Below, in pieces: positions 10,512-43,712 of a DNA stretch of 64,000 nucleotides. The DNA lies in sequence record OR544954; one strand, 5' to 3'. The stretch's first letter is position 1. Each line of letters opens with the position of its first letter. The notes beneath the pieces were generated by a model that had not been told where the DNA came from, ran no database searches, and saw only the letters and a program-made list of their open reading frames with translations. The translations under genes and the position numbers were made by a program. Origin of the DNA: Escherichia phage vB_EcoM_EP32a.

Positions 10512-10552
10512 CAGTTTACATAAGGATGATGGTGTGTTACTATCATCCTATC
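10512..10552 (+). promoter_or_regulatory. T4-type early promoter with flanking inverted repeat
   Basis: GTTTACA ... TACTAT; palindrome AGGATGAT/ATCATCCT around -10. Confidence 0.5.
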
Positions 10553-10577
10553 AAATAAACAGCCTCAAGGAAATAAA

Positions 10578-10865
10578 ATGAAAACCTATAAAGAATTTAT
10601 ATCACCTGTTGCTAACGTTTCTACTCTGACCGAAGCATCCCTTACTTCTGAAGTTATTAAAACAAATAAAGGACGTGAGGGTAAACCAATGATTAGTCTG
10701 GTTGATGGTGAAGAAGTAAAAGGTACTGTTTACTTAGGGGATGGATGGTCTGCTAAGAAAGATGGCGCTACTATTGTTATCTCTCCGGCTGAAGAGACTG
10801 CACTGTTTAAAGCTAAGCATATTTCTGTAGCTCAGCTTAAAATTATTGCAAAAACTCTTCTGTAA
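10578..10865 (+). CDS. internal protein with capsid-targeting leader (IPI position)
   Basis: N-terminus MKTYKEFIS resembles T4 internal-protein CTS MKTYQEFIAE; 95 aa. Confidence 0.7.
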   Translation: MKTYKEFISPVANVSTLTEASLTSEVIKTNKGREGKPMISLVDGEEVKGTVYLGDGWSAKKDGATIVISPAEETALFKAKHISVAQLKIIAKTLL

Positions 10866-10867
10866 GT

Positions 10868-10906
10868 AGTTTACATGCTGATAGGACTATGTTATAGTAG
10901 TCCTAT
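10868..10906 (+). promoter_or_regulatory. T4-type early promoter with flanking inverted repeat
   Basis: GTTTACA, -10 TATAGT inside palindrome GATAGGACTA/TAGTCCTATC. Confidence 0.5.
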
Positions 10907-10935
10907 CAAATCAAATGAGTAAATGGAGAAATAAA

Positions 10936-11121
10936 ATGAAACGCGCTGAACTGATTCGTAATGTTGCTGTAGTAATTGCTTCAATGGCTTTTAGTTTTTC
11001 GATGTTTGTAGGATTCATTTGTGGACTACTGACAACAACTGAAAACTCTATCTCATTGGTAGTAGCATTTCTAATCGGCTTAATCGCTATCGTTATGGAT
11101 AAAATTGCAAAAGGTGAGTAA
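10936..11121 (+). CDS. small hydrophobic membrane protein
   Basis: ATG after GGAG; hydrophobic 61-aa product. Confidence 0.5.
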   Translation: MKRAELIRNVAVVIASMAFSFSMFVGFICGLLTTTENSISLVVAFLIGLIAIVMDKIAKGE

Positions 11122-11122
11122 A

Positions 11123-11485
11123 ATGAAATATCACGTATATGCTGATTTTGAAGCAAATCCTTCTAAAGACCCGGATTGTCGTTTGATACGTAATCCGTTT
11201 GATTCAGCAGCTCAAGCATGGACTTGGATTAAATCTAAATCGCCTGGTTATATGTTCTTTGAAGTAGTCGATGACAATGGTACACTGCATCCAGAACCTA
11301 CAGAAACTATTAATTTCCTTCTGTTTGCTGGTTATGACTGTTATCCTCTTGGTGGTATTGACGACCTTGTTGCTACAGGAAAAACTGTTGAGGCTCTTCG
11401 CGAAATTTATAAAAACGCAGAAGAAAATTTTGACTGGTATCATATTGTCAGTGCACATACTTTTGAAGTGGTGGAACACTCATGA
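11123..11485 (+). CDS. hypothetical protein
   Basis: ORF MKYHVYADFEANPSK..., start after GGTGAG. Confidence 0.55.
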   Translation: MKYHVYADFEANPSKDPDCRLIRNPFDSAAQAWTWIKSKSPGYMFFEVVDDNGTLHPEPTETINFLLFAGYDCYPLGGIDDLVATGKTVEALREIYKNAEENFDWYHIVSAHTFEVVEHS

Positions 11486-11552
11486 TTCTTTACGCTAAAG
11501 TAAAATCTGTCGAGAACGGATATGAAAGCGACTAGTCGATGACTATGGTATT

Positions 11553-11753
11553 TTGACTAATTTTGAAGTTGAAAAGGTTTATATCGACCGTTCATCTTCG
11601 CAAGTTAAATTACTCTGTGAAGATGATAAATTTAACACAGTGAACTTTGATTTCTTTATTGAAACAGAAAAAGGCCCTCTTGAATATGATATTTTCAAGA
11701 ATCCTTTGAAATTACGTTGCATTGAATATAATTACATTAATATGGTACGGTGA
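11553..11753 (+). CDS. hypothetical protein
   Basis: 66-aa ORF. Confidence 0.45.
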   Translation: MTNFEVEKVYIDRSSSQVKLLCEDDKFNTVNFDFFIETEKGPLEYDIFKNPLKLRCIEYNYINMVR

Positions 11754-11850
11754 TTAAATGAATATTCGTTTAGGCAGTACAATTCCTAAGGGCTACGTAA
11801 TTGATGTCACTACCTAGGAAAATGATGGTGACAACTATAAAACCAAAACA

Positions 11851-12273
11851 TTGTTTGAAGTGGAAGAGCATGAGCTCCAACAGTTTAAATATCTCTTGAA
11901 GAAATTTAAGAGTCGTCATTCTAGCACTAAAGCCGAACGTTATTGTGGTAATACACCATTCAGTGATTGCTCGCTTTTAATCTATGAATACTTGGTTGAA
12001 GGGCTGTTCTCAGACCAGCTTTATCCAGAATTTATTAAAAAGGTCTTTGATATTGAAGTCGACCTCGGTAATAAATCTGAAGAAGACGAAGCGCGTGTAT
12101 TTGACCTGTTCCATGAGAATGGATATTTAGTATCAGAAGGTCTCATTGATATTCTTGGCCATGCTTCTGAATACTATGATTACGATTTCTTGCGTGTAGT
12201 TGAACGTGTCGAATTTGCTTATATTGAAGAAGAAATCGTTTTGCCAACCGTTAAAATGGTTGATTTGCTTTAA
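11851..12273 (+). CDS. hypothetical acidic protein (possibly truncated by an upstream in-frame TAG)
   Basis: ORF track 140 aa with a non-ATG start; the same frame is open from ATG 11758 but contains TAG at 11815-11817. Confidence 0.45.
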   Translation: MFEVEEHELQQFKYLLKKFKSRHSSTKAERYCGNTPFSDCSLLIYEYLVEGLFSDQLYPEFIKKVFDIEVDLGNKSEEDEARVFDLFHENGYLVSEGLIDILGHASEYYDYDFLRVVERVEFAYIEEEIVLPTVKMVDLL

Positions 12274-12342
12274 GAATTATGTGTTATTATTAATTCATAC
12301 CCTCTATTACCAAAGGTGCTCTAAAGTGCCTTTCATAATAGA

Positions 12343-12416
12343 AAGTTATTTAGGCCCTGTAGCTCAATGGTTAGCAGCAGTCCCCTCATAAGGGAAAGGT
12401 TACCAGTTCGAATCTG
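12343..12416 (+). tRNA. tRNA with CAU anticodon (Met or Ile2), no encoded CCA
   Basis: Anticodon stem TCCC/GGGA with loop CTCATAA; T-arm ACCAG-TTCGAAT-CTGGT; acceptor pairing is imperfect. Confidence 0.55.
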
Positions 12417-12432
12417 GTCTGGGTCATATATT

Positions 12433-12509
<77 letters not shown>

Positions 12510-12527
12510 ACTTTAAGTGAGGAAAAT

Positions 12528-12923: not shown

Positions 12924-12929
12924 GGACTG

Positions 12930-13160
12930 GTCTTAATAAATCTTTACGATTTGTTAATATCCCCTTACATCACAGCAGAAACGGCGCACCGAATTATCGA
13001 TTCGAGGAAATATCTTTGCCGTAAGCCGAGTAGCGTTTTTGACGGAACGTTCGGATATGGTCGAGATATGGCCTTTTAAAAATATTGAGTAGCGTCAACT
13101 GCTTAATAACCGGGTTCGAATCCCGGCGTTTCGTACAAACACTTTGCCTTAGTAGGTGGA
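12930..13160 (+). ncRNA. possible tRNA-like stable RNA(s), cf. T4 rnaC/rnaD
   Basis: Non-coding stretch with T-arm-like CCGGGTTCGAATCCCGG and repeated GAGTAGCGT; sits where T4 has species 1/2 RNAs. Confidence 0.35.
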
Positions 13161-13186: not shown

Positions 13187-13215
13187 AGCCCCTTCCGAAA
13201 GGTCGGGGCTTTTTG
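13187..13215 (+). terminator. Rho-independent terminator
   Basis: AGCCCC ... GGGGCT hairpin followed by TTTTT. Confidence 0.6.
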
Positions 13216-13226
13216 AGGAAAATGTT

Positions 13227-13529
13227 ATGAGTCTTTACACTGAACTGAATAAAAAATCTGAAGAATCTGCTGAAACTATTTTTAAAAACGTGCAAAAGCG
13301 TATTTTAGAAAAGATGTATAACGCTGCAGCTAAAGGTGAAAAATCTTGCCGGTTTCCGATTAGGTGTTCTTCCGATTTATGCGCAAATACTATTGAATGG
13401 TTGGAAAGTGAAGGTCTTACGGTAGAGAAAAACCCGGCGACTTCTATTGGCAGTGAATCATATATTAGTATTTCTTGGGATAAATCAACAAAATTAAAAA
13501 TAATGATGTACAAGCACCAAGGATGGTGA
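13227..13529 (+). CDS. hypothetical protein
   Basis: ATG after GAGG; MSLYTELNKKSEE... Confidence 0.5.
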   Translation: MSLYTELNKKSEESAETIFKNVQKRILEKMYNAAAKGEKSCRFPIRCSSDLCANTIEWLESEGLTVEKNPATSIGSESYISISWDKSTKLKIMMYKHQGW

Positions 13530-13537
13530 TACTATAG
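13505..13537 (+). promoter_or_regulatory. T4-type early promoter
   Basis: TGTACA ... TACTAT. Confidence 0.4.
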
Positions 13538-13565
13538 ACTTATCAACTACAAAGGAGTAAACAAA

Positions 13566-13730
13566 ATGACTACTTTAATTATTTGGTTCGATGAAAATGA
13601 AGAAACATACTGTGTGAATATTGGTGAAAGTCCAATGCCTGAATTTGAATCCTCAGATAAAAACTCTGTTGTATCTTGGGCTGAAGGTTATAAAGCCGCT
13701 AAAGGTGACGTTGAAATAATTTACATCTAA
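13566..13730 (+). CDS. small hypothetical protein (54 aa)
   Basis: ATG after AAGGAG; below the ORF-track size cutoff. Confidence 0.4.
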   Translation: MTTLIIWFDENEETYCVNIGESPMPEFESSDKNSVVSWAEGYKAAKGDVEIIYI

Positions 13731-13776
13731 GTAAGTTTATGTTATAGTAATCACATCAAATAAAGAGGAAAACAAA

Positions 13777-14004
13777 ATGGCTAAAGTTAGTATTGATGTC
13801 GTTGATTATGAATACACCGAAGAAGTTATTCGCAACCGACACCCTGAAGTTCGTATCGATTCAGTCCAAGATTCCAAGTTCTGGACAACTGAGCTTAATC
13901 TGAGTGGTCCTTATGAAGCTGTTAAGAAGTTCATGGTTGAAGAATACTGCGAAGGCATGCACCCTGAAGATGCAGAATTTTATGTCAACTTGATTAAAAA
14001 ATAA
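13777..14004 (+). CDS. hypothetical protein
   Basis: 75-aa ORF after AGAGGAAA. Confidence 0.5.
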   Translation: MAKVSIDVVDYEYTEEVIRNRHPEVRIDSVQDSKFWTTELNLSGPYEAVKKFMVEEYCEGMHPEDAEFYVNLIKK

Positions 14005-14040
14005 TTTACAAACTCTCGAGAGCAGAGTATAATGCTCTCG
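14003..14040 (+). promoter_or_regulatory. T4-type early promoter with flanking inverted repeat
   Basis: TTTACAAACTCTCGAGAGCAGAGTATAATGCTCTCG; near-identical copy at 42768. Confidence 0.5.
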
Positions 14041-14074
14041 TTGGATAATAAACCACCAATTGAAAGGTAATAAT

Positions 14075-15684: not shown

Positions 15685-16022
15685 CCGTATGGCCTTCTCT
15701 TGGTGAGAACATTCTAATTTTTATTATGAGTATTGGCATGGGATTTGCCTTTGGATTAGTTGGATTTCTTATTGACGGCGTTGTGTTAGGATTTATAGGG
15801 AACACTGGTGGATTCACAGACCAATGGCAGGACTTACGGTACACCCAAGCCTTTGCATCCATCGCATCATTTTGTACTGTAGTCTATTTTTACTACGATT
15901 TTATAAACCACAACAAGAAAAATAAAAAGGTTTACGCTTCTCAAATGATTAGTTATAATGAACTCCTAGCTAGACGTGAAAATGAAACAATCGAAAACTT
16001 TATTAAGGAATGTAGAAAATGA
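15663..16022 (+). CDS. small membrane protein, C-terminal NFIKECR motif (family member 2)
   Basis: TM-like segments, then ...ENFIKECRK. Confidence 0.55.
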   Translation: MQKPQLLTVWPSLGENILIFIMSIGMGFAFGLVGFLIDGVVLGFIGNTGGFTDQWQDLRYTQAFASIASFCTVVYFYYDFINHNKKNKKVYASQMISYNELLARRENETIENFIKECRK

Positions 16023-16815: not shown

Positions 16816-16856
16816 CAGTTTACAACAAGATAGGGCTATGTTATAGTAGTCCTATC
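16816..16856 (+). promoter_or_regulatory. T4-type early promoter with flanking inverted repeat
   Basis: GTTTACA ... TATAGT in palindrome ATAGGGCTA/TAGTCCTAT. Confidence 0.5.
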
Positions 16857-16875
16857 AAAACAAATGGAGTCCACA

Positions 16876-18110: not shown

Positions 18111-18150
18111 CAGTTTACAAGGTCTGTAGTTGTTGATACTATAGACCTAT
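18111..18150 (+). promoter_or_regulatory. T4-type early promoter with flanking inverted repeat
   Basis: GTTTACA ... TACTAT; AGGTCT/AGACCT. Confidence 0.5.
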
Positions 18151-18180
18151 CAAAACAAATGAGTGAATGGAGATATAAAA

Positions 18181-18381
18181 ATGACTACTTTGAATAAACG
18201 TTTCGGTAAAGCTAAACCTGGTTGTGCAGCAGAACGTCGTTATGTTTTCGCTCAGTTAGAAGATGTAGAGTATCAGATTAATCAAGTTCACATTACTGGT
18301 ATCGAGCCTATGTGTGGCCTTGAAGCTCTTCGTGAAGTTCGTGATGGGTATCGTCGTGACATCGAAGAAATGTCAAAATAA
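18181..18381 (+). CDS. hypothetical protein
   Basis: 66 aa. Confidence 0.5.
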   Translation: MTTLNKRFGKAKPGCAAERRYVFAQLEDVEYQINQVHITGIEPMCGLEALREVRDGYRRDIEEMSK

Positions 18382-18420
18382 GTGTACAAACTGATAGGAC
18401 TATGTTATAGTAGTCCTATT
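18382..18420 (+). promoter_or_regulatory. T4-type early promoter with flanking inverted repeat
   Basis: GTGTACA ... TATAGT in palindrome. Confidence 0.5.
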
Positions 18421-18439
18421 AAAACATGAGGAGAATATT

Positions 18440-19347: not shown

Positions 19348-19838
19348 TGATTAACAAAACATATTGGTCTAATATTGACGACGGCAATGAAGGTATTTCA
19401 TACTATTCAGTAGATTGGACAGGATGTCCATCCTACTTAGTGAAACGTATTTGCCAAGAATTTAAAATCGACCAGCCAGCAGGTATTATCGTGAACAGAT
19501 ACATTAATGGATATCAACCTATCGATGAAGTAATACGAACAACTCAAGCTGAGCTTGAAAAGTTTTTCAATAAGTGCCAATGGATAACAGGATGGATTAT
19601 ATTTGTACCGTCTATATGGTTTTTCAGTACTAAGGTGAGTTCTTTCGGTTTTGTTGATATTATTGCTATCTTATTAGCATCTACTATCGTAAGTATTATT
19701 GGCGGTATAATTGGTGGAGGTACTGTAGGCATCATTATTAATCTTATTAAAAGTAGTTTACAAGAACATAAAGACAAGATAAAAGCCAAGAATAATGAAG
19801 TTGAACGTTTTATTACCGAATGCAGGAATTTGAGATGA
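19347..19838 (+). CDS. membrane protein, C-terminal RFITECR motif (family member 4)
   Basis: Hydrophobic core with GGIIGGG, then ...VERFITECRNLR. Confidence 0.55.
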   Translation: MINKTYWSNIDDGNEGISYYSVDWTGCPSYLVKRICQEFKIDQPAGIIVNRYINGYQPIDEVIRTTQAELEKFFNKCQWITGWIIFVPSIWFFSTKVSSFGFVDIIAILLASTIVSIIGGIIGGGTVGIIINLIKSSLQEHKDKIKAKNNEVERFITECRNLR

Positions 19839-20071
19839 GTATAGCAATTTACATTAAATCAGAATCATGTGATAGTTATCTGTACACATACGATAAAGAT
19901 GTGTCAGAAGAAAAAATCAAAGACGACCTTAATACGGATCTTGATATGTTCTGTCCTATTGCAGATTACAAACTTGCGGTCTCTAATAGTGAAAGTCCAT
20001 CTAAAGAAACGCGCATTGAAGAATTTATGTCCGAATTAATGGCCAAATCATGGGACCGAGATGATGAGTAA
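19835..20071 (+). CDS. hypothetical protein
   Basis: 78 aa. Confidence 0.45.
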   Translation: MSIAIYIKSESCDSYLYTYDKDVSEEKIKDDLNTDLDMFCPIADYKLAVSNSESPSKETRIEEFMSELMAKSWDRDDE

Positions 20072-21320: not shown

Positions 21321-21352
21321 TGTTTACTTCCTCCAAGGGTTTTGATACTATA
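21321..21352 (+). promoter_or_regulatory. T4-type early promoter
   Basis: GTTTAC ... TACTAT. Confidence 0.45.
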
Positions 21353-21378
21353 CATTCATCAACTACTTGGAGGAAATT

Positions 21379-21799: not shown

Positions 21800-22060
21800 A
21801 TGAAAATGTATCAAGAATTTATCATTGAAGCAGATGCCAAAGACCCTAAATTTAAAGTTAAAGCTTTCATTGGTGATGCGGAAGACTTTGGCTCATTAAA
21901 ACGTAATGGGTATTCTTTCTTAGGTGGTGATGGTAAAGAAATCAACACCTATGCAAAACGTAGTGAAATTGCTTATGTTGTAGTAAGTCCTAAAGTAGAT
22001 GTTGACGATATTGGATACGATTTTAACAACTTCGGAATTATTTCTGGCGGTAAAGCTTAA
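21800..22060 (+). CDS. internal protein with capsid-targeting leader
   Basis: MKMYQEFIIEA leader; 86 aa. Confidence 0.65.
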   Translation: MKMYQEFIIEADAKDPKFKVKAFIGDAEDFGSLKRNGYSFLGGDGKEINTYAKRSEIAYVVVSPKVDVDDIGYDFNNFGIISGGKA

Positions 22061-22061: not shown

Positions 22062-22095
22062 TTGTTTACGCTTAAGTATTAATATGGTATAATTA
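22062..22095 (+). promoter_or_regulatory. T4-type early promoter
   Basis: GTTTAC, 18-bp spacer, TATAAT. Confidence 0.5.
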
Positions 22096-22123
22096 CTCTA
22101 TCAAAACAAACAAGGAAACAAAA

Positions 22124-22195
22124 ATGAAAACATATAAAGAATTTATCGCCGATCCAACCTGTAATAAGGTCGAGCCCAAGTGCGGTAATGGGTTT
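22124..22195 (+). pseudogene. remnant or minimal internal-protein gene (leader + 13 aa, in-frame TAG)
   Basis: MKTYKEFIADPTCNKVEPKCGNGFT then TAG; same frame stays open to 22260. Confidence 0.4.
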
Positions 22196-22257
22196 ACATA
22201 GCGAGTCGAAGGACCTAACATGTGCCACGGAATGGCCCAAACCTTAAGAGAAATAAT

Positions 22258-22797
22258 ATGAGAACATTTTTAACTGGACCTTATCTATCCCTGATGAATG
22301 CTTTTACACACCATTCTGATGCTAGAGTAGAAGAAATTTGTAAGAACGGTTATGTCCCGCCATTTGAAGAAGTACTCAAGCAGTACTGTACACTTCGTTT
22401 AGACGGCGGCCGACAATCCGGTAAATAAATTGCTGTGACTAACTTTGCTGCTAATTGGCTGTATGATGGTGGAACAGTTATTGTTCTTTCTAATACTTCA
22501 GCTTATGCTAAAATTTCTGCTGGCAACATTAAAAAAGAATTTTCTCGTTATTCTAGCGATGATATTCGATTCCGTTTATTTACTGATTCTGTTCGTAGTT
22601 TTATTGGCAATGAAGGTTCTAAATTCCGTGGATTAACGCTTTCTCGTATTCTGTATATAATTGACGAGCCTATTAAAGCTCCTGATATGGATAAGATTTA
22701 CAATGTACATATTAAAACAGTCCAACACTGTTGCAAAAGCAAATATTGCATCGGCGGTAATGCTCGTCCTCAATTTTTTGTGATTGGAATGCAATGA
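22258..22797 (+). pseudogene. P-loop NTPase interrupted by in-frame TAA inside Walker A
   Basis: ...LDGGRQSGK-TAA-IAVTNF... same frame across 22426-22428; Walker B-like ILYIIDEP downstream. Confidence 0.5.
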
Positions 22798-23815: not shown

Positions 23816-23850
23816 TAGTTTACTTCTCCTCTAGTTGTGTTACTATAGAC
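23816..23850 (+). promoter_or_regulatory. T4-type early promoter
   Basis: GTTTAC ... TACTAT with flanking CTAGAGG/CTAGAGG-type repeat. Confidence 0.45.
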
Positions 23851-23874
23851 CTGTCAACTAGAGGAGAAATCAAA

Positions 23875-25897: not shown

Positions 25898-26100
25898 GTC
25901 AAACAAAAATTCTTACAGGTGCTAAATGCGAAAAATGCGAATGGCCTGTAGTTTTTGCTTTATGCAATGACGAAATGGCTTGTGATTTTGATTATTGGTG
26001 TTACTGTTCGAACAAAGGTTGTAGCAATCATAAAGGTGAAGGGTTTTACTCAGGATTTTACCCTTACCCGGATTTCGTTAAAGAAGGTGAACCTAAATGA
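25888..26100 (+). CDS. Cys-rich small protein (possible zinc binding)
   Basis: CEKCEW...C...C..C...C motifs. Confidence 0.5.
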   Translation: MVMSQTKILTGAKCEKCEWPVVFALCNDEMACDFDYWCYCSNKGCSNHKGEGFYSGFYPYPDFVKEGEPK

Positions 26101-27431: not shown

Positions 27432-27460
27432 AGCCCCTTCCTTATGGTTGGGGCTTTTTG
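27432..27460 (+). terminator. Rho-independent terminator
   Basis: AGCCCC ... GGGGCT hairpin + TTTTT. Confidence 0.6.
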
Positions 27461-27469: not shown

Positions 27470-27502
27470 AGTTTACTTTTCCTCAGGTTGTGTTATAGTA
27501 GT
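27470..27502 (+). promoter_or_regulatory. T4-type early promoter
   Basis: GTTTAC ... TATAGT. Confidence 0.45.
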
Positions 27503-27526
27503 CCTTACTTACTAGAGGAGAACATT

Positions 27527-27713: not shown

Positions 27714-27920
27714 ATGCTTTACGATTATACTGGAAAATCTGAAGACGGTGTACTTGAGCTTTTATCTGAAAGCGCTGAAGATGACGATACGGTGGTGATG
27801 TTTTGTAAAAATGGTCCTGGGGATAAGGGATGGATTTATCTTCGCCAAGAAAATGACCTAATTGTTTTGGACCCTAAACAAGTTGAAGAACTTTATCAAC
27901 ATTTAAAACACAATCGGTAG
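27714..27920 (+). CDS. hypothetical protein
   Basis: 68 aa after GAGGA. Confidence 0.45.
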   Translation: MLYDYTGKSEDGVLELLSESAEDDDTVVMFCKNGPGDKGWIYLRQENDLIVLDPKQVEELYQHLKHNR

Positions 27921-27960
27921 TTTACGTCTTGGTAGGACTATGATATAGTAATCCTACCAA
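27918..27960 (+). promoter_or_regulatory. T4-type early promoter with flanking inverted repeat
   Basis: GTTTAC ... TATAGT; GGTAGGA/TCCTACC. Confidence 0.5.
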
Positions 27961-28084
27961 AACAAATGGAGAACAAAATGAAACTTTTGCTTATCGCTTA
28001 TGTTGTAGTACAATATAATTATCCGATGTTTACTTATAACATGGTAAACGGCATAGTGAATCTTATTGAAACGAGTATGGTAAA

Positions 28085-30583: not shown

Positions 30584-30604
30584 GGGGACCTTCGGGTCCC
30601 TTTA
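30584..30604 (+). terminator. stem-loop terminator (UUCG loop)
   Basis: GGGACC-TTCG-GGTCCC then TTT. Confidence 0.45.
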
Positions 30605-30628
30605 GGGGGTTAAAATATTTTTAAAAAG

Positions 30629-30668
30629 TAGTGTACATGCTTTTAGGATATGTTATTATAGACCTATC
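30629..30668 (+). promoter_or_regulatory. T4-type early promoter
   Basis: GTGTACA ... TATTAT. Confidence 0.45.
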
Positions 30669-30676
30669 GAAACGAA

Positions 30677-31678
30677 ATGAGTAAATTGGAGAATAAAATG
30701 TTCAACGTTCAAATCAAAAAAGGTATCTATCGTAATAACGAAATCTCTGGTTCTTATGTTGCCACAAAGACCTGGTTCCCGGCAAAGCTTAATCCTGAAT
30801 GTTCCCACTTAGGTGATGGTAAAATTTTCGTTATGATTGATGGTTCTGAACGTGGAGTATGGGTCTTCAAATCAGACATCGTAATGGAAGGAGTTGAGAC
30901 GTCGCCAGTTGCAGTTGTTGAAAGCACTGAAGATATGAAAACTCGTATCAACAAACGCTTTAAAGTAATGAACATGATGACGAATGGCATTATCGATGGC
31001 AAAATTCGTTCACTCATTATTTCAGGTGCAGCTGGTATTGGTAAGACGTATTCTCTGGATAAAGCACTTAATAATGCTAATGATAATGGTTTCATCAAAT
31101 ACAAAAGCATTAATGGTAAAATCTCCGGTATTGGCCTTTACGAACAACTTTGGCTCAACCGTGATGCAGATAGCGTTCTCTTAATCGACGACGTTGATGT
31201 ATTCTCGGATATGGATATCTTAAACCTTCTTAAAGCAGCATTAGATACCGGAGATAAACGCAAAGTTTGTTGGAGCACTGCGTCATCTTATCTCGAGGAT
31301 AAGGGTATTGATAAAGAATTTGAGTTTGAAGGTACTATCGTTTTCATTACAAACGTTGATATCGATAAAGAGTTAGAACGGGGTTCGAAACTTGCTCCAC
31401 ACCTTCAAGCTTTAGTATCTCGTTCAGTGTATCTCGACCTTGGAGTACACTCTAATGAAGAGATTATGGTTCGAGTTGAAGATGTAATATTATCTACTGA
31501 CATGATGCAGAAACGTGGTCTGACGGATGCAGAAACGTATAAAGCATTGTCCTGGATGAAGGCTAACGTATCTCGTCTTCGCAATGTATCATTACGTACG
31601 GCTCTTTATGTAGCAGATTTTATTTCAACCGATAAAGATGGTTGGGAGGAAATCTCGGAAGTTACTTTACTGAAATAA
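30677..31678 (+). CDS. P-loop ATPase (AAA-like)
   Basis: Walker A GAAGIGKTY, Walker B VLLIDDVD. Confidence 0.6.
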   Translation: MSKLENKMFNVQIKKGIYRNNEISGSYVATKTWFPAKLNPECSHLGDGKIFVMIDGSERGVWVFKSDIVMEGVETSPVAVVESTEDMKTRINKRFKVMNMMTNGIIDGKIRSLIISGAAGIGKTYSLDKALNNANDNGFIKYKSINGKISGIGLYEQLWLNRDADSVLLIDDVDVFSDMDILNLLKAALDTGDKRKVCWSTASSYLEDKGIDKEFEFEGTIVFITNVDIDKELERGSKLAPHLQALVSRSVYLDLGVHSNEEIMVRVEDVILSTDMMQKRGLTDAETYKALSWMKANVSRLRNVSLRTALYVADFISTDKDGWEEISEVTLLK

Positions 31679-31815
31679 GCTTATAGGAAGTTCTTAGGTA
31701 ACAAAAGCCATAAAGATGAATAATCATATGGCTTACCTCAAAGAAGGACACCAGGAACCTACTGAGGGCATAGAAATATTTAAAATAACGATGTACAAAT
31801 CAAAGAGGATATGTT

Positions 31816-32103
31816 ATGGATTTTATGCAAAAAATTAAAGCCGCAGTCGAACTGTATGCTCATCGTATGGTTAGTTCTACGATGCAATATAGTGAGGAGG
31901 TTCGCCATGACTCTTCCTTGAAAGGAAAAACTAAAGCCTTAATTACCTTAGATCGTTTGCAAAAGAATGCCATAGAGATGCTCCAGTACGACAAGGGTGT
32001 ATATAAGAAAGAACAGGAAGAGAAACTTAAATCTGAAAAATTACAAAAAATCCCGAAGTCTGTTTGGTTCAGTGGAAAAAATACCGAAAAAAGTTTCTTT
32101 TAG
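31816..32103 (+). CDS. hypothetical protein
   Basis: 95 aa. Confidence 0.5.
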   Translation: MDFMQKIKAAVELYAHRMVSSTMQYSEEVRHDSSLKGKTKALITLDRLQKNAIEMLQYDKGVYKKEQEEKLKSEKLQKIPKSVWFSGKNTEKSFF

Positions 32104-32104: not shown

Positions 32105-32142
32105 TGTTTACAAGGTCTATGGTTATGTTATTATAGACCTAT
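32105..32142 (+). promoter_or_regulatory. T4-type early promoter with flanking inverted repeat
   Basis: GTTTACA ... TATTAT; AGGTCTAT/ATAGACCT. Confidence 0.5.
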
Positions 32143-32161
32143 CAACTACTGGAGGTAAAAC

Positions 32162-32751: not shown

Positions 32752-33747
32752 ATGAGCATTACATCTGATGCGGTAAAACATGAAATTAACGGTTTATGTG
32801 CTTCACAGATTAAAGTGTGGTTTAAAGACCATAATGATCGCAGAGCACTTAATTATGAACGAATTGCTATCCAAGTTCATCAATTACTGGTTAGTAAATT
32901 TGATTTTCATATGCCGTCTGAAATCTATACTAATCTACCTCGAGCGCTTATTAAAGCGTGTAAAGGCTACGGAAAATCAATGGCTGATGGAATCTTCAGC
33001 GCGCTGAATAAACTTAACGTTCTGTCGATGATTAACTCTAACAACATCCTGCGTAATCTAGGACGTACTGATTTGTTCGGTCGTGAACAGTGTAAAATGC
33101 CTTTGAAATGGATTGTTGCTCATCTTAACGAGAACCAAACACGTTTTATGGCCGTAACAGCACGTTTACAAATGGGCCTAGATCGTCAGATGAACTTTAA
33201 AACTCATCCACGTTATTCAGGTTCAACTGACTTTTATAAATGCGAGCTTCAAAAGGTTGCAGGCAAAACTGTCTTAGTAGTTCGTGTAACGTTTGAAGGA
33301 CGACGTCAAGGATATTTTGACCTAATTGGCTCTGGTCTCAAACATTGTGGATTTATCGACGAAGTTGATATCAAGCGAGACGGCACTGGATACCGTATTG
33401 GATATGTTTGCACTCTTAAAGAAGAGATTTCGGGACCAGCACCAGGACTAAAAGACGTTAGATATAAAGACGAGCTAGTTGAAGAAATAAAAGAAGTTGA
33501 ATATGATATCAACCAAGAAGATGCTCTTAAAGACCTTATTGACGAACTAAACCAAGACGTTATTCCGGTTCAGAAATTTGAATCAAAACATGCTGAGCAA
33601 ATCAAATACTTTGAAGCTTTGATTAACGAACTTAATGTAACTATTCAGCAGACTGACGATGAAATCTCACGATTAGCAGGCTTAAATGGTAAAAATAAAA
33701 CAGAACGAGCTAATCTTATTCAAGTAGTAAAACTTCTTAAGGAATGA
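32752..33747 (+). CDS. hypothetical protein with C-terminal coiled coil
   Basis: 331 aa. Confidence 0.55.
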   Translation: MSITSDAVKHEINGLCASQIKVWFKDHNDRRALNYERIAIQVHQLLVSKFDFHMPSEIYTNLPRALIKACKGYGKSMADGIFSALNKLNVLSMINSNNILRNLGRTDLFGREQCKMPLKWIVAHLNENQTRFMAVTARLQMGLDRQMNFKTHPRYSGSTDFYKCELQKVAGKTVLVVRVTFEGRRQGYFDLIGSGLKHCGFIDEVDIKRDGTGYRIGYVCTLKEEISGPAPGLKDVRYKDELVEEIKEVEYDINQEDALKDLIDELNQDVIPVQKFESKHAEQIKYFEALINELNVTIQQTDDEISRLAGLNGKNKTERANLIQVVKLLKE

Positions 33748-33777
33748 TGTACAACCAAGGATGGTTGGAGTATAATA
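33747..33777 (+). promoter_or_regulatory. T4-type early promoter
   Basis: ATGTACAACCAAGGATGGTTGGAGTATAAT; near-copy at 34637. Confidence 0.5.
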
Positions 33778-33802
33778 AATTTTTCAACATGAGGAATATA
33801 AA

Positions 33803-34633
33803 ATGGCTTTTATTACACGTAGAGAACTTATCAAAGAATTTACCTCTAACGCATATACTCCAGGACCTAATCCTATCCGTATGCCTGTAAAGACTCCTGA
33901 AGAGATTGAGGAAATCTGTTCATATTATGGGATTACTTCTCGTAAGTTTACTCAATTTGAATGTGTTACTAACACACCCGTTAAAGAGTTCATTAAAAAT
34001 GGCGAGTTCAGCCGTTTATTAGCCAAACAGAAACTTCGTAATTTTTGTATCGGCGGTGAAGGACAATATTTCGCTAAGCAGTTCCGAAATAACCTTAACA
34101 ATCTGATGGCCATTGCTTCTCGTATTCGTCCTCAAGCAATTAACATGAAACATTTGAAATATACTTACGATAAGTTAGAAATCATGGTTATCAGTGAGAA
34201 CGAGTTCACTCTTACATATAATCCTAAGAATGATAACGTTGCTCGTGTATTCCACCAAGCACTGGAAGTTTTAGGCGATAATATCCACCAGATTAAAGCG
34301 ATTTATTCTCGTGAGCTTAATATTATTGACCCTATCAAGAATAAGGGCAATATCGCTATCCAGGCTCGTGTATCTATTGGTAAAAAGGTTCCTGCGCCAT
34401 GGTGGCACAAAGACTCTGAATACTATCAAAATCTTAAAAAGGAAAATGCATTGTTTGAAGCTCTTCTTCCGGCCGAAGATTACCATTACAATCAAATCAA
34501 GGCCACTATGGACCAACTGTCTGTTGAACTTGACAAAGCACAAGCTAAGCTTCGTGATGCTCAACAAGTAGTTACCAATCTCCAGTTGCAGTACTCTAAA
34601 CTTTTTAACGCAATGAATGCATTAAAATCATAA
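33803..34633 (+). CDS. hypothetical protein with C-terminal coiled coil
   Basis: 276 aa. Confidence 0.55.
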   Translation: MAFITRRELIKEFTSNAYTPGPNPIRMPVKTPEEIEEICSYYGITSRKFTQFECVTNTPVKEFIKNGEFSRLLAKQKLRNFCIGGEGQYFAKQFRNNLNNLMAIASRIRPQAINMKHLKYTYDKLEIMVISENEFTLTYNPKNDNVARVFHQALEVLGDNIHQIKAIYSRELNIIDPIKNKGNIAIQARVSIGKKVPAPWWHKDSEYYQNLKKENALFEALLPAEDYHYNQIKATMDQLSVELDKAQAKLRDAQQVVTNLQLQYSKLFNAMNALKS

Positions 34634-34636: not shown

Positions 34637-34668
34637 AGTTTACAACCAAGGATGGTTGGAGTATAATG
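34637..34668 (+). promoter_or_regulatory. T4-type early promoter
   Basis: GTTTACAACCAAGGATGGTTGGAGTATAAT. Confidence 0.5.
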
Positions 34669-34695
34669 AATCTATCTTAACGAGAGGAAAATATT

Positions 34696-35646
34696 ATGAC
34701 ACGTTCACATTACATTGATTATTTTGCAGGTCTTATCGCTAATGTTCATGCCCAACGTGCTTCTGGTTCATTAGGATTTGATGTTCCACACCGAGATGTA
34801 GTAAGTGGTATTCTTCGCGATTTTGGTACATATACCGGCCAAGAAAATCATATCTGTAAAGATACTCAAAATGCGTATTCTCATTCATTAGGGACACTGC
34901 TTCAATGGTTCAAACGTTCTCGTTTATTATCTTCTACTGTAGCTCGCGATAACATTAAAAACTTTATGAAACCGAGCTTTATTAAATCTGTGACATCTAA
35001 AACCGATTTGGTTGAATTCACTATTGTTAATGATGTTAAAAAGACTCATTTAGCTGATTGGTTATCTACCATTCCTGAAACTAAATTTGCTGATAAATTT
35101 GCTTGTGAATTCAATAACCAAGTGAATATGCTTTTTAAACATTCTCGTAAATTATTCACTGGCGGTGATGGTCGTACAAATAAAGTTCATGTTAAAGATT
35201 GGGTTACTGCAGTATTCAAACCAACCGGTAATGGTAACGCATCATTATCAATTGATATCCAGGTTCCTTATTACTACTCATGTAATCTCGGTACCATGAA
35301 AGCCGAAGAAATTAAGAAGCACAATAAAACCGTTCGTTCGCTGTCTTATAAACTTCGCATGATGTTAAGAGTCATGGACGTGGTAGAAATGTATGATGAA
35401 ACCGAAGATAATGGTTCAATGTTATACAGTTCTCGCATTCAAATTAAGTTGAAGAACCCTAACGAGTATAAGCCTAAGCCTATTAAAGAGCCTAAAGCAG
35501 AAAAAGTTGATAACTTAAGAGAAGAACGTGAGTACCTCAAATCTCGTCTGAAAGAAGTCGAAGCCCAGATTGCAGAACAAACTAAATCGTTAAAAGCTCT
35601 GAATGCGAAAGCGGACGGTTTACGAAATGCCATTGAGGTTTTATAA
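34696..35646 (+). CDS. hypothetical protein with C-terminal coiled coil
   Basis: 316 aa. Confidence 0.55.
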   Translation: MTRSHYIDYFAGLIANVHAQRASGSLGFDVPHRDVVSGILRDFGTYTGQENHICKDTQNAYSHSLGTLLQWFKRSRLLSSTVARDNIKNFMKPSFIKSVTSKTDLVEFTIVNDVKKTHLADWLSTIPETKFADKFACEFNNQVNMLFKHSRKLFTGGDGRTNKVHVKDWVTAVFKPTGNGNASLSIDIQVPYYYSCNLGTMKAEEIKKHNKTVRSLSYKLRMMLRVMDVVEMYDETEDNGSMLYSSRIQIKLKNPNEYKPKPIKEPKAEKVDNLREEREYLKSRLKEVEAQIAEQTKSLKALNAKADGLRNAIEVL

Positions 35647-35951
35647 TGAAACTACGTCTTTTAGAGGATATTGACATGAGCACTAATCATGGCTTGGTTA
35701 AGTTTATTGACGATAGTTCAAAGATTGAATTTGTTCAGCGAGATAAAATCCACGGTGAAGAAGAGTTCGTTCCTCCGGCATGGAACGAAATAATGAAAAT
35801 GGTTGAACGACGTGAAAATGCTGCCAAATCGGCAGCAAAACATCCATGCCCGGAATGTGGAACTATCCAAGTCCAACTGGTTAACTGGACCAGTGATAAC
35901 TTGAAATTGAAATGCCGTAAATGCTTCCACAAATTTGAGAGAACATTATAA
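35646..35951 (+). CDS. zinc-ribbon protein
   Basis: CPECG ... CRKC four-Cys motif. Confidence 0.5.
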   Translation: MKLRLLEDIDMSTNHGLVKFIDDSSKIEFVQRDKIHGEEEFVPPAWNEIMKMVERRENAAKSAAKHPCPECGTIQVQLVNWTSDNLKLKCRKCFHKFERTL

Positions 35952-40046: not shown

Positions 40047-40513
40047 ATTATGATAGATTTTATCCTTGCGATTTTGTGAATGGCCCTGGTTGCAGGGTCG
40101 TTCTTTTCGTTACAGGTTGTTTGCATAAATGCGAAGGGTGTTATAATAAATCAACATGGAACGCTAGAAATGGTATTCCATTCACGGGTGAAACACTAGA
40201 GCAATTAATTGAATGTTTGAATAATGATTATATAGAAGGATTAACTATAACTGGAGGAGACCCTCTCTATCCCGATAACAGAGATGTTGTTCATTGCATT
40301 GCTCAAACAGTAAAAAATCTTTATCCCAATAAAAGCATTTGGTTGTGGACAGGATATAAGTTTGAAGATATTAAACAACTAGAAATGCTTAAATATGTTG
40401 ATGTTATTATTGATGGGAAGTATGAGAAAAATCTTCCGACCAAAAAACTGTGGCGAGGATCAGATAATCAGCGACTTTGGTCAAATACCGATGGGGTGTG
40501 GAAACATGATTAA
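40043..40513 (+). CDS. nrdG: anaerobic RNR activating enzyme NrdG (radical SAM)
   Basis: CLHKCEGCYN radical-SAM cysteine motif; 156 aa. Confidence 0.9.
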   Translation: MNYDRFYPCDFVNGPGCRVVLFVTGCLHKCEGCYNKSTWNARNGIPFTGETLEQLIECLNNDYIEGLTITGGDPLYPDNRDVVHCIAQTVKNLYPNKSIWLWTGYKFEDIKQLEMLKYVDVIIDGKYEKNLPTKKLWRGSDNQRLWSNTDGVWKHD

Positions 40514-41448: not shown

Positions 41449-41556
41449 CCAGGTGCCGCCTGGTCTTCTTTATCTCATTTCTAATATAATCCATTGGAAT
41501 CTTCACTTCACTATCTCCTTGTGCCACTCTCAAATCAAAAAATATTTTCATAAAAC

Positions 41557-41600
41557 AGTTTACATCCTCAATAGATGTGTTAAGATTAAACCATCTACTA
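41557..41600 (+). promoter_or_regulatory. T4-type early promoter with flanking inverted repeat
   Basis: GTTTACA ... TAAGAT; ATAGATG/CATCTACTAT. Confidence 0.45.
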
Positions 41601-41614
41601 TAGAGGAAAATAAA

Positions 41615-41797
41615 ATGACAATTGAAGATAAAGAAATTAAGGTCGACCAGTACTATTCTGTCAACGGTAGTGCAGTACAGATAACCAGAGTTTCAAGCCT
41701 GGATGTTTGGTACCGTTCGATCAAATATCCGGAAATTGGTGAAATGCTTTGTGACCGTGGTATCTTCTGTTCAATTGCGAAGGAAATTAAGCCATGA
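41615..41797 (+). CDS. hypothetical protein
   Basis: 60 aa after AGAGGAAAA. Confidence 0.5.
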   Translation: MTIEDKEIKVDQYYSVNGSAVQITRVSSLDVWYRSIKYPEIGEMLCDRGIFCSIAKEIKP

Positions 41798-42042
41798 TTA
41801 GTTTAGATTCAAAGAAAGTTGTTCTATCTCTTAATGTAAATAACGAACGTCCGATATTCATTACCATTTCCGATTTGAATGTTGAAATTGCTAATGGCGT
41901 CCGTACTTATCAAACGTCTAAAACACAATGGGACTATATCCCAATGTTGACTCTTACTCAGCGTTTAGAATCAATCGGTCTTAAAGACCTTTCAGTAAGT
42001 GAAGTGAATTTTATCAAACGTATTGTATCAATCAACCTCTGA
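41794..42042 (+). CDS. hypothetical protein
   Basis: 82 aa. Confidence 0.5.
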   Translation: MISLDSKKVVLSLNVNNERPIFITISDLNVEIANGVRTYQTSKTQWDYIPMLTLTQRLESIGLKDLSVSEVNFIKRIVSINL

Positions 42043-42049
42043 GGTACTT

Positions 42050-42343
42050 ATGGGTAAAACGTATCGTCGTAAAGATTTGAAAGTTCGCGATTACGACTAT
42101 TTTGGTAAGCGTAAAGCTCCTGATGGTGTTAGCCACAAAGACATGGTTGAAAACATTTTCCGCTCAGATAAATGGAAACGTATGAAAGGCGTTGATTCTG
42201 AAGTCAAGAATGAAATGAATCGACAACTCCGCAAAGAAGTTCGTAAGTTGAAAAAAGATGTTTACAGTAAAGAAGAGTATGATTATAATACTTCTCATAC
42301 TGAAGCCAAACGTAAAGCTAACGAATGTTATCGTTACAGTTGA
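42050..42343 (+). CDS. hypothetical basic protein
   Basis: MGKTYRRKDLKVRDYDYFGKRKAP... Confidence 0.5.
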   Translation: MGKTYRRKDLKVRDYDYFGKRKAPDGVSHKDMVENIFRSDKWKRMKGVDSEVKNEMNRQLRKEVRKLKKDVYSKEEYDYNTSHTEAKRKANECYRYS

Positions 42344-42350
42344 GGAAATT

Positions 42351-42485
42351 ATGAATATCAAACGAATGCTTTTTAAGCAGGGATTATATACTTTAAATGT
42401 TAATCCAAAGGGTGATACAACTAAATGGTCTGTAAATGACTGGATTAAGTTCATCGATGAAAATGGGGCGTGGAACACAAAATGA
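42351..42485 (+). CDS. small hypothetical protein (44 aa)
   Basis: ATG after GAGGAAA. Confidence 0.35.
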   Translation: MNIKRMLFKQGLYTLNVNPKGDTTKWSVNDWIKFIDENGAWNTK

Positions 42486-42685
42486 ATCCTGAAAATATTG
42501 TGTCATGGCAAAAGCTTCGTGAAGAACGTGCCGAATTCTTTGCCAATATGAAACTCAACGGTGTTGAGGATGAAGACTTTTTACGTTGGTTCTGGATTTA
42601 CAAATACAAAGAATGCCAGCACGCTGTACTACTGACTTGTGCAGTTATGTACGAAGGCTGGAAAGGCGCTAAAAAGTTCGGTTAA
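42482..42685 (+). CDS. hypothetical protein
   Basis: 67 aa. Confidence 0.5.
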   Translation: MNPENIVSWQKLREERAEFFANMKLNGVEDEDFLRWFWIYKYKECQHAVLLTCAVMYEGWKGAKKFG

Positions 42686-42687
42686 TA

Positions 42688-42727
42688 ATATACAACGATA
42701 GGAAGACATGTTATTATCTTCCTATCG
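42688..42727 (+). promoter_or_regulatory. T4-type early promoter with flanking inverted repeat
   Basis: TATACAA ... TATTAT in palindrome GATAGGAAGA/TCTTCCTATC. Confidence 0.45.
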
Positions 42728-42767
42728 TCTTAAAATGAGGAAAATATCATGGCCCAAGAATTAGATT

Positions 42768-42808
42768 TTATTACAAACTCTTGAGAGCAGAGTATAATGC
42801 TCTCTCAT
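42768..42808 (+). promoter_or_regulatory. T4-type early promoter with flanking inverted repeat (copy of 14003 cassette)
   Basis: TTACAAACTCTTGAGAGCAGAGTATAATGCTCTCTC. Confidence 0.5.
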
Positions 42809-42837
42809 TGGATAATAAAATAACCGAGGAAAATAAT

Positions 42838-43170
42838 ATGTCTACTAAAATCAAAAACGTAGTTAATTCTTTCGCTTTCGATAAAGTTGTTGCTCTTCTG
42901 GAATCCGGCAATATTGTTACTCCTCAAGTCCTTGACGCGTGGGAATTCCGTCTTTATGAAATCATGCAAAAACACGACCAGAAAATTGGACGTAATTCTA
43001 TTCGTGAAATTCTAGTACAATATATTCTTTCTGAATTTGACGTTGCTGCATTTGGTGTTGAATCTAAAGCTTATCAGAAACATGAAATCTCTGAAAAGAC
43101 TATCCGTCGTATGAAAAATCAACGTAAGAAAAAATTCGTTGACCTGAAAATTGTTAAGGCGGTAAAATGA
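42838..43170 (+). CDS. hypothetical protein
   Basis: 110 aa. Confidence 0.5.
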   Translation: MSTKIKNVVNSFAFDKVVALLESGNIVTPQVLDAWEFRLYEIMQKHDQKIGRNSIREILVQYILSEFDVAAFGVESKAYQKHEISEKTIRRMKNQRKKKFVDLKIVKAVK

Positions 43171-43394
43171 GCGTATTAACAGAATCTTTGATTAATGACC
43201 TGCGTCTAGCTGGTTACGAAGTTGGTACAAATAGCCTAGGTCTTTCTCAGATTGAAGGGCTTGGATTTATCCTAGAATATGAATTCAAACAATGGTGGCT
43301 ATATGCTACGGCTGACGATGCGTTGAATATCGATTTCGTTGACCAATTTGATTCGTTGGATGATGCTCTTGAAGCAGCAAAGGAACTAGAATGA
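43167..43394 (+). CDS. hypothetical acidic protein
   Basis: 75 aa. Confidence 0.5.
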   Translation: MSVLTESLINDLRLAGYEVGTNSLGLSQIEGLGFILEYEFKQWWLYATADDALNIDFVDQFDSLDDALEAAKELE

Positions 43395-43660
43395 AATTAA
43401 CTCGAATCAGTATAACTGAAGAAAAGCTGGGCGAATTTTATGTTGACGAATACATGAAAGTCACGTATTTTCCATTCGTTAAAGGTGTTGGTTTTTGGGA
43501 AACTCATGTATCTCAATTAAACGAAGGCGACTATAACGAAACTCATGAGAACTTTTTAGATTTTCTTTATAATGCCGGTCTTACTGAGCTTTATATCGAT
43601 ATCCATGAGTTCAAACGTTTAATGGAAAAAGTGTTTCAGGCTTATTGTTTGCTCCGATAG
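43391..43660 (+). CDS. hypothetical protein
   Basis: 89 aa. Confidence 0.5.
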   Translation: MKLTRISITEEKLGEFYVDEYMKVTYFPFVKGVGFWETHVSQLNEGDYNETHENFLDFLYNAGLTELYIDIHEFKRLMEKVFQAYCLLR

Positions 43661-43667
43661 TATCTCG

Positions 43668-43712
43668 TGCTTTAAGATAGGTCTCTAAATATTATGATAT
43701 AATAGACCTATG
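43668..43712 (+). promoter_or_regulatory. promoter with flanking inverted repeat upstream of gene 55
   Basis: -10 GATATAAT flanked by ATAGGTCT/AGACCTAT. Confidence 0.4.

Follow-up and report, generated by a model that had tools for sequence, protein, structure and literature searches.

Escherichia phage vB_EcoM_EP32a carries, in the 64,000-nucleotide stretch of sequence record OR544954 analysed here (the window), a set of repeated early-promoter cassettes in which the spacer separating the -35 box from the -10 box is often complementary to sequence downstream. These cassettes are probably sigma-70 early promoters of the promoter-early-stem-loop (PeSL) class, whose spacer would form a hairpin in read-through RNA and whose repetition would promote recombination as a side effect. 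The evidence consists of the promoter motifs, the specific complementarity of the arms and its conservation through compensatory changes, the geometry of the hairpins relative to the transcription start, and two insertions or deletions (indels) bounded by cassettes. Promoter activity is predicted from the consensus and from T4 orthology; the RNA-level action and its consequences for the two hairpin classes described below we infer from the geometry.

Early-promoter cassettes

The promoter pattern was already revealed by a loose regular expression. A T4-type matrix was built from the clear sites of the window; it covers GTTTACA with the 8 nt before it, a spacer of 16-18 nt, and the -10 hexamer with three preceding bases. 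At ≥17 bits it detected 25 sites on the plus strand, all within 10.4-43 kb, none on the minus strand and on average 0.1 per dinucleotide shuffle; its training set was the same plus-strand sites that it scores, and the contrasts with the other strand and the shuffles are informative, not the raw count. A looser threshold gave 28 plus-strand sites versus one on the minus strand; 27 of them lie at 10514-42688, the other being a weak outlier at 51354. With a damaged copy at 42769 added to the 27 sites of the region, 28 cassettes are obtained, all on the plus strand: 20 are intergenic, with a Shine-Dalgarno (SD) sequence and ATG 30-45 nt after the -10 box, and eight are weaker candidates inside coding sequence. 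The first-pass annotation had counted about twenty cassettes with a GTTTACA-type -35 box, which agrees with the intergenic set. Among the promoter scans tried, the T4-type matrix alone discriminates; a generic sigma-70 scan (TTGACA/TATAAT) did not rise above shuffles (76 versus 67.6 and 57 versus 54.1) and is useless here.

Intergenic cassettes aligned on the -10 box have the consensus TaTGtTATaATa.tCCTATCaAa, in which an extended -10 precedes a conserved start region. Their layout comprises an A-rich UP element, GTTTACA, a spacer of 16-17 nt, TGnTAtaaT, the start region a.tCCTATC, a short A-rich leader, the SD sequence and ATG. From this consensus and from T4 orthology, +1 is probably the A of CCTATC. 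In the homologous 40 kb of T4 the same matrix detected 20 sites, all on the early strand and before orthologous genes. The T4 records NC_000866 and AF158101 carry no promoter annotation, and a literature search for maps of T4 transcription starts or 3' ends returned nothing usable.

Two classes of hairpin

Stems with folding free energies (dG) from -11 to about -20 kcal/mol were found in 13 of the 20 intergenic cassettes; the remaining seven have weak hairpins or none. Where z-scores of the folds from cassette to ATG were computed, they range from -1.8 to -5.4. In an unbiased scan for perfect hairpins of at least 8 bp with loops of 3-14 nt, 35 were found in the 64 kb and 8-25 in shuffles. Eight of the 35 lie inside cassettes, which make up 1.6% of the sequence; about 0.6 were expected, an enrichment of about 14-fold.

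Ten cassettes belong to class A, in which the spacer pairs with the -10 box and start region in a stem of 7-12 bp that embraces the -10 box (dG -11 to -18 kcal/mol). The inverted repeat reported earlier around the -10 box is real, but its frequency was overstated: only these ten cassettes have a strong 7-12 bp stem there. Three further cassettes, before denV, regB and 55.6, form class B, with a longer repeat that reaches from the promoter spacer to the SD sequence; the 55.6 cassette is the weakest case. The SD sequence is fully paired in the predicted read-through folds of all three (21322, 23818 and 41558). For denV, the read-through fold pairs all five SD bases, and the transcript from its own promoter leaves all five free. 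Little or no structure is predicted for the class B own transcripts (0.0, -2.5 and -0.2 kcal/mol).

The two classes share a geometry relative to the predicted start. With +1 at the A of CCTATC, a class A own transcript lacks the 5' arm altogether and keeps only the final few bases of the 3' arm. In class B the 5' arm is the -35/-10 spacer, and the own transcript starts about the beginning of the 3' arm (just before it, or, by the predicted +1, at or after its start).

Selection for pairing

The arms of a cassette fit their own partners. Chimeras were made by combining the 5' part of each cassette with the 3' parts of all the others: the mean fold is -7.3 kcal/mol for own arms versus -4.4 kcal/mol for the chimeras, and none of 5000 permutations reached the own value. 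The distribution of own-arm folds is bimodal, with ten strong cassettes and the remainder at background. For denV and regB the own duplexes (-18.9 and -22.3) are stronger than even the best chimeras (-14.1 and -19.7).

Orthologous stems are kept with different sequences. Among regB leaders from 16 IMG/VR contigs and T4, the distal stem is AGTTG/CAACT, GACTG/CAGTT, TTATG/CATAA or GTAAG/CTTAC in four lineages, the changes being compensatory. A MAFFT alignment of these leaders for counting pairs was dropped because the arms shift register between lineages, and the arms were compared directly instead. The denV leader of T4 has the compensated pair TCTCCTGTAG/CTACAGGAGA, and the stems of both denV and ipI differ between T4 and the window. 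Among close relatives, orthologues of the cassette at 27920 have TTGATAGG/CCTATCAA, then TTGGTAGG/CCTATCAA, then TTGGTAGG/CCTACCAA, a path from A-T through G·T to G-C.

The hairpin class itself is switched at one locus. The promoter spacer of nrdC.8 pairs with the start region in the window (class A), and with the SD sequence in T4 and in another lineage, locus L032 (class B), while the downstream sequence is almost unchanged (AGACCTATCAACTACTGGAGG) across the window (32106-32161), T4 (53943) and loci L032/L033 (245-300). The nrdC.8 relatives are two loci compared by hand; searches for related loci with single proteins gave 16 and 8 loci, a thin sampling of lineages.

In a fixed-register alignment of 24 distinct cassettes from eight genomes, seven of 11 pairs change on both sides, with a covariation score of 0.50 versus 0.26 in shuffles and 0.03-0.19 with slid partner columns; these cassettes had been pre-selected for pairing in that register, and the percentage paired and part of the covariation are built in. 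Independent evidence from this alignment is that one and the same register is taken up by at least five unrelated arm sequences. Mismatches within the helices are G·T/T·G in 10 cases versus A·C/C·A in three, a weak pointer to RNA of the plus strand.

The cassette stems are under selection for pairing and not for sequence, since the arms fit their own partners (0/5000) and orthologous stems are kept with different sequences. The first-pass annotation had named chance inverted repeats as a refutation; for the 13 strong cases the permutations, the enrichment in cassettes and the compensatory changes contradict chance.

Repeated cassettes and gene gain and loss

Three sets of cassettes, 14004/42769, 10869/16818/18382 and 33747/34638, are identical at 54-56 of 72-75 positions, with near-identical central stretches. 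These sets had been recognised before unrelated genes in the first pass, with coordinates off by 1-2 nt, and the observation holds. BLASTP of the downstream proteins gave no significant similarity, which rules out paralogy as the source of the near-identical cassettes. The only protein segment shared among downstream genes is the internal-protein leader MKTYKEFI, in ipI and in the stub at 22124.

The window was compared with mar005P1, APCEc01, mobillu, PTK and phiEC1, JS09 being left out. Among these five relatives about 17 distinct indel or replacement events were found in 9-45 kb, about half of them with one end in or beside a cassette. Just one of these events is a clean cassette-to-cassette case, and a second clean case was seen in ATK47. 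In the first, a 66-aa open reading frame (ORF) between the cassettes 18113 and 18382 (window 18119-18382) is absent from PTK and phiEC1; the cassette of PTK at this place is a hybrid, whose UP element and -35 box come from the first copy, whereas its spacer, -10 box and leader come from the second. The hybrid was demonstrated in PTK alone, the phiEC1 gap being mapped only. In the second, the ipI and tRNA.4 cassettes of ATK47 enclose an additional gene for an internal protein, Ip7, which has a cassette of its own; the ATK47 record's own note mentions a 43-bp direct repeat. The suggested connection of cassettes with modular gene shuffling is borne out by two cassette-bounded single-gene indels and one hybrid; most other events (about 16) are not of this kind.

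Terminators, too, behave as repeated module boundaries, and not promoters alone, since in PTK an inserted gene of 594 bp has a copy of an intrinsic terminator on either side (locus L006, reverse strand, ~22074-22102 and 22668-22697). A near-identical intrinsic terminator (AGCCCCTTCC-GAAA/TTAT-GGTYGGGGCTTTTT) is present twice in the window, at 13187-13214 and ~27433-27460.

Compared with all five close relatives, the window has seven precise deletions of ~105-970 bp. No junction homology was found at these seven deletions (microhomology 0-1 nt), and they are not cassette-mediated. A private 219-bp deletion, with its joint at 42771/42772, removed the UP element and part of the -35 box of the cassette 42769; this joint is absent from all 161 matching phage records. 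Another, of 223 bp, ends 18 nt upstream of the cassette 13506. The deletions leave three gene stubs: ATGGCT of vs.3, joined on 6 nt upstream of the regB -35 box; a remnant of 11 codons at 42749; and the internal-protein leader MKTYKEFIAD at 22124. Seven such deletions are unusual for natural T-even variation and could represent genome reduction, a laboratory deletion strain or an assembly artefact.

Three segments of 137-185 bp (21850-21987, 25928-26093 and 43471-43656) are present in the window and absent from phiEC1 (L034). At least one of them corresponds to an entire small gene (tk.3/RB32ORF111c-like); the operon around it is tightly packed and has no cassette close by.

Genomic context and inventory of sites

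More than 1000 records of T4-type phages were matched by megablast over 10-30 kb, the best of these matches being RB69-like Mosigvirus (APCEc01, 97.9% identical, mar005P1 and others). By sequence similarity the window is accordingly assigned to an RB69-like (Mosigvirus) T4-type phage. Transferred annotation places genes 6, 5 and 53 on the minus strand; the plus strand carries 4, 2, 3, 1, 57A, 57B, ipI, tRNA.4-.2, two tRNAs, e.x, nudE, e and denV, followed by vs.x, regB, vs, tk, rI, mobD.x, nrdC.x, nrdC, pin, 49, nrdD, nrdG, 55.x, 55 and 47. This gene order identifies 10.5-43 kb as the classical hyperplastic early region of T-even genomes. The strong cassettes are all situated between genes 57B and 55.

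The two tRNA genes, tRNA-Met (CAT) and tRNA-Arg (TCT), are located at 12353-12509. They were the only Rfam hits in the whole window at gathering thresholds, and no known RNA family overlaps any cassette. A comparatively G+C-rich non-coding stretch, 22153-22260, between the internal-protein stub and vs.8, is kept in relatives and has no Rfam match; its counterpart in JS09 contains a small ORF annotated as a denV fragment.

The intergenic cassettes, the candidate sites in coding sequence and the deletion joints are listed in Table 1. The cassettes with mini-hairpins (13506, 33747 and 34638) have stems of 4-5 bp, and nothing convincing was found at 13719, 22064, 27471 and 30631. The leaders at 10909-10935, 18149-18180 and 30671-30697 share AAATGAGTRAAT(T)GGAG, which resembles an 8-nt duplication of the AAATGGAG leader found at 16818 and 27920. 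The upstream ATG that results shares the frame of the annotated start at 10915 and 30677, but not at 18152.

Table 1. Predicted early-promoter cassettes, promoter-like sites and deletion joints in the window (dG in kcal/mol)
Position	Strand	Type	Location	Hairpin	dG	z	Remarks
10514..10577	+	class A	before ipI	AGGATGAT/ATCATCCT at 10523-10549, 12 bp including G·U pairs	-15.4	-3.5	
10869..10935	+	class A	before tRNA.4	TGATAGGACTA/TAGTCCTATCA at 10879-10908	-17.7	-5.2	
13506..13565	+	spacer mini-hairpin only		CACCAaggaTGGTG	-5.7		not above chimeric background
13719..13776	+	no hairpin	before frd.3-like ORF		-0.7		
14004..14074	+	class A	before e.6	CGAGAGCA/TGCTCTCG at 14017-14040			
15930..15959	+	promoter-like site	in coding sequence	none			
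16818..16875	+	class A		GATAGGGCTAT/GTAGTCCTATC at 16829-16856, two G·U (one internal, one terminal)	-16.0		
18113..18180	+	class A		AGGTCTGTAGT/ACTATAGACCT at 18120-18148			left partner of cassette-to-cassette indel
18382..18439	+	class A		ATAGGACTA/TAGTCCTAT at 18394-18419			right partner of cassette-to-cassette indel
19756..19785	+	promoter-like site	in coding sequence	none			poor -10 TAAAAG
19847..19876	+	promoter-like site	in coding sequence	none of cassette type			-10 GATAGT
21322..21378	+	class B	before denV	spacer TCCTCCAAG 21329-21337 with CTTGGAGGA 21366-21374	-18.0	-4.4	
22064..22123	+	no hairpin	before internal-protein gene stub (MKTYKEFIAD...)				
23818..23874	+	class B	before regB	spacer TCTCCTCTAGTTG 23825-23837 with CAACTAGAGGAGA 23855-23867	-20.5	-4.6	
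27471..27526	+	weak hairpin	before mobD.2a	anti-SD-like spacer TTTCCTC			pairing weak, unspecific, rank 7 among chimeras
27920..27977	+	class A	before mobD.2	TTGGTAGGA/TCCTACCAA at 27929-27960			
30631..30697	+	degenerate hairpin	before nrdC.10		-3.9		separate stem-loop precedes at 30595-30611
31791..31820	+	promoter-like site		none			weak -10 TATGGA
32106..32161	+	class A	before nrdC.8	AGGTCTAT/ATAGACCT at 32113-32140			
33747..33802	+	4-bp spacer mini-hairpin	before nrdC.5				core near-identical to 34638
34638..34695	+	4-bp spacer mini-hairpin	before nrdC.3				core near-identical to 33747
35618..35647	+	promoter-like site	at end of nrdC.3				weak score, 12.5 bits
37047..37076	+	promoter-like site	in coding sequence upstream of pin	none			T4 orthologous site 47452
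40119..40147	+	promoter-like site	inside nrdG				terminator-like hairpin 40078-40103 precedes; T4 orthologous site 42840
41558..41614	+	class B	before 55.6	spacer TCCTC..TAGATG with CATCTA..GAGGA across 41565-41607	-12.0	-3.3	
42260..42289	+	promoter-like site	in coding sequence	weak interrupted stem			T4 orthologous site 41261
42688..42748	+	class A		ACGATAGGAAGA/TCTTCCTATCGT at 42695-42728			gene reduced to 11-codon stub
42769..42837	+	class A	before 55.2	GAGAGCA/TGCTCTC at 42783-42804			
13214/13215, 13488/13489, 22152/22153, 23771, 23811/23812, 34461-34463, 42771/42772		deletion joints					

Proposed mechanism and alternative explanations

The promoter spacer, only weakly constrained by RNA polymerase, would be free to evolve complementarity to downstream sequence, as in about two thirds of the intergenic cassettes. 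Because transcripts from the cassette's own promoter lack the 5' arm, the hairpin would form only in RNA read through from the upstream gene, where it begins 10-25 nt after the upstream stop codon. A class A hairpin would then be a 3'-proximal structure on the upstream cistron that attenuates transcription or blocks 3' exonucleases and so insulates adjacent gene modules from each other. In class B the SD sequence would be hidden in read-through RNA, and translation, together with cutting by RegB at GGAG, would be confined to transcripts from the gene's own promoter. It is a serious possibility, which we hold at somewhat below even confidence, that some T-even early-promoter spacers double in this way as anti-SD sequences (regB, denV, 55.6, and nrdC.8 in T4), read-through RNA being silent and the own-promoter transcripts alone being translated and exposed to RegB. 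As the cassettes are repeated and similar, they may serve as substrates of homologous recombination, by which single genes would be added or removed together with a cassette.

Other explanations of the repeats were weighed. Action at the DNA level, with hairpins or cruciforms of single-stranded or supercoiled DNA as recombination hot spots for gene shuffling and not for regulating genes (for example, through template switching or as endonuclease VII substrates), would account for the two single-gene indels bounded by cassettes and for near-identical cassettes before unrelated genes. We consider it unlikely: the hybrid crossover in PTK is located at or near the -35 box and not in the stem or loop, cassettes without a hairpin are repeated equally (33747/34638), stems of 8-12 bp with loops of 6-14 nt make poor cruciforms, most indels are not cassette-to-cassette, the bias of G·T over A·C favours one RNA strand, and pairing with the SD sequence, as in class B, is meaningless in DNA. 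Class A hairpins could alternatively be true terminators, the cassette being the composite terminator-promoter of the PeSL papers. Their position shortly behind the upstream stop codon fits this explanation, and an RB49 PeSL stem-loop cut downstream lacZ expression to the level of rrnB T1 (PMC2839356). The cassettes 27471 and 30631, with weak hairpins, are each preceded by a separate stem-loop; the one before 27471, at ~27433-27460, is an intrinsic terminator with a T-run, as if it substituted for the missing hairpin. Plus-strand cassette hairpins, however, are not followed by a T-run, and canonical intrinsic termination by them is therefore unlikely. The terminator scan calls none of them, its single call of a cassette palindrome (42694-42729) being on the minus strand; the sequence after the stem is A-rich (CAAAACAAATGG) and not T-rich, and the class A stems, in contrast to the G/C-rich RB49 stems, contain just 3-5 G-C pairs and are AT-rich. 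This explanation, too, is improbable.

A dimeric protein of phage or host might bind the inverted repeat as its operator and, for example, shut off early promoters minutes after infection. In favour of this are the shut-off of T4 early promoters, whose mechanism is reported as not understood (PMC3014915), and the commonest pair of arms, GATAGGACTA/TAGTCCTATC, which occurs at four cassettes centred on the -10 box. An operator is very unlikely, since pairing and not sequence is kept among the unrelated arms that share a register, G·T wobbles are tolerated, the register of the stem shifts between cassettes, and a third of the cassettes have no repeat. The repeats might finally be a functionless by-product of the promoter consensus, given that the 3' arm overlaps conserved promoter sequence (a.tCCTATC) and that the weak mini-hairpins, like several short stems, do not exceed the chimeric background. 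The specificity of the arms for their own partners, the concentration of perfect hairpins in cassettes and the compensatory changes in orthologues already contradict this for the 13 strong cases; it stands for the mini-hairpins only, and as a general explanation its probability is minimal.

Several points weigh against the favoured reading, in which early-promoter spacers form hairpins in read-through RNA. The cassettes are predicted sigma-70 early promoters, and their putative activity follows from the consensus and from T4 orthology. The excess of G·T is small (10 versus 3) and its cases are not independent; the pre-selection of the 24 aligned cassettes was noted above. A third of the intergenic cassettes and all of the intragenic candidates have no meaningful hairpin, and the promoter therefore does not require one. 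The nearness of indel ends to cassettes is confounded, and constitutes weak evidence, because cassettes make up most of the intergenic DNA; only two of about 18 indel events are cassette-to-cassette. The function of class A hairpins, whether attenuation, 3'-end protection or processing, is a guess.

Comparison with known systems and significance

PeSLs were defined in RB49 and phi1 as strong sigma-70-like early promoters with an AT-rich upstream region and a stem-loop, which mostly lies between the -35 box and the -10 box or overlaps the latter, followed by an SD sequence and a start codon; they are repeated in hyperplastic regions before small unrelated ORFs (Arbiol 2010, PMC2839356). The resemblance to PeSLs proposed in the first-pass annotation is upheld point by point, in anatomy and in context. 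The cassettes of the window share with PeSLs the sigma-70 early promoter, the AT-rich upstream region, the preferred positions of the stem-loop, and the 3' SD sequence and start codon; many similar copies precede small unrelated ORFs, and single genes are gained or lost between copies, leaving a hybrid copy. They differ in that the stems are AT-rich and lack a T-run, whereas the RB49 stems are G/C-rich and were tested as terminators, and in the explicit division into start-masking and SD-masking geometries. PeSLs were extended to T4/PST and KVP40/nt-1 (Comeau 2014, PMC4122927); in the available part of that paper the stem-loop of T4/PST lies just upstream of the promoter, whereas many straddle the -10 box in the window and in the T4 sequence scanned here. 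RB69 is not mentioned in PMC2839356, and the available part of PMC4122927 covers only T4/PST and KVP40/nt-1.

Early promoters of T4 are described by an UP element, a -35 box, TGn and a -10 box (Hinton 2010, PMC2988021), and for RB69 57 early promoters were predicted, with a preference for C at -3 to -1 (Nolan 2006, PMC1524935). The cassettes agree with both in GTTTAC, the 17-nt spacer, TGn with a TATAAT-like box and C-rich positions -3 to -1, and they occupy the same positions before ipI, tRNA.4, denV, regB, mobD.2, nrdC.8 and other genes. Inverted repeats, palindromes, hairpins or stem-loops in promoters are not mentioned in the RB69 promoter paper (PMC1524935), and the only stem-loops mentioned in PMC2988021 are those of intrinsic terminators in general, not of promoters.

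A hairpin that sequesters the SD sequence, combined with an internal promoter, is established for the T4 genes e, soc, 49 and I-TevI, and cleavage by RegB is blocked by RNA structure (PMC3014915). Class B resembles this family in having the 5' arm upstream of the start site and the SD sequence in the 3' arm, a geometry by which long read-through transcripts would be silent and the gene's own transcripts translatable. The family's late promoters (TATAAATA) delay expression until late in infection; the internal promoter of class B is of the early sigma-70 type (GTTTAC..TACTAT), and its -35/-10 spacer is the 5' arm. For regB, denV and 55.6 the predicted effect is restriction of expression to the short life of the early promoter. 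By their layout, class B cassettes work like the e/soc/49/I-TevI family without being members of it.

The finding is real and mostly ordinary, representing the already described PeSL kind in an RB69-like lineage; some novelty resides only in the conserved anti-SD spacer at the early promoters of regB and denV, of which no description was found. RB69-like phages would be a fourth T4-type lineage with PeSL cassettes. For annotation, the cassettes reliably mark about 20 early transcription units and their boundaries in these phages, where public records list most of the genes concerned as hypothetical. For phage engineering, they represent natural portable promoter-plus-insulator modules and also predictable deletion sites. 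The one feature outside the published picture is class B at regB and denV, which is conserved between T4 and RB69-like phages. If the anti-SD role of the spacer is true, the amount and timing of the protein would depend strictly on the 2-3 minutes for which its early promoter lives, the late-gene paradigm known from e, soc, 49 and I-TevI would apply to early genes as well, and across lineages one promoter could switch between masking the start region (class A) and masking the SD sequence (class B). If confirmed, class B would explain how a toxic nuclease gene in a read-through operon stays strictly early.

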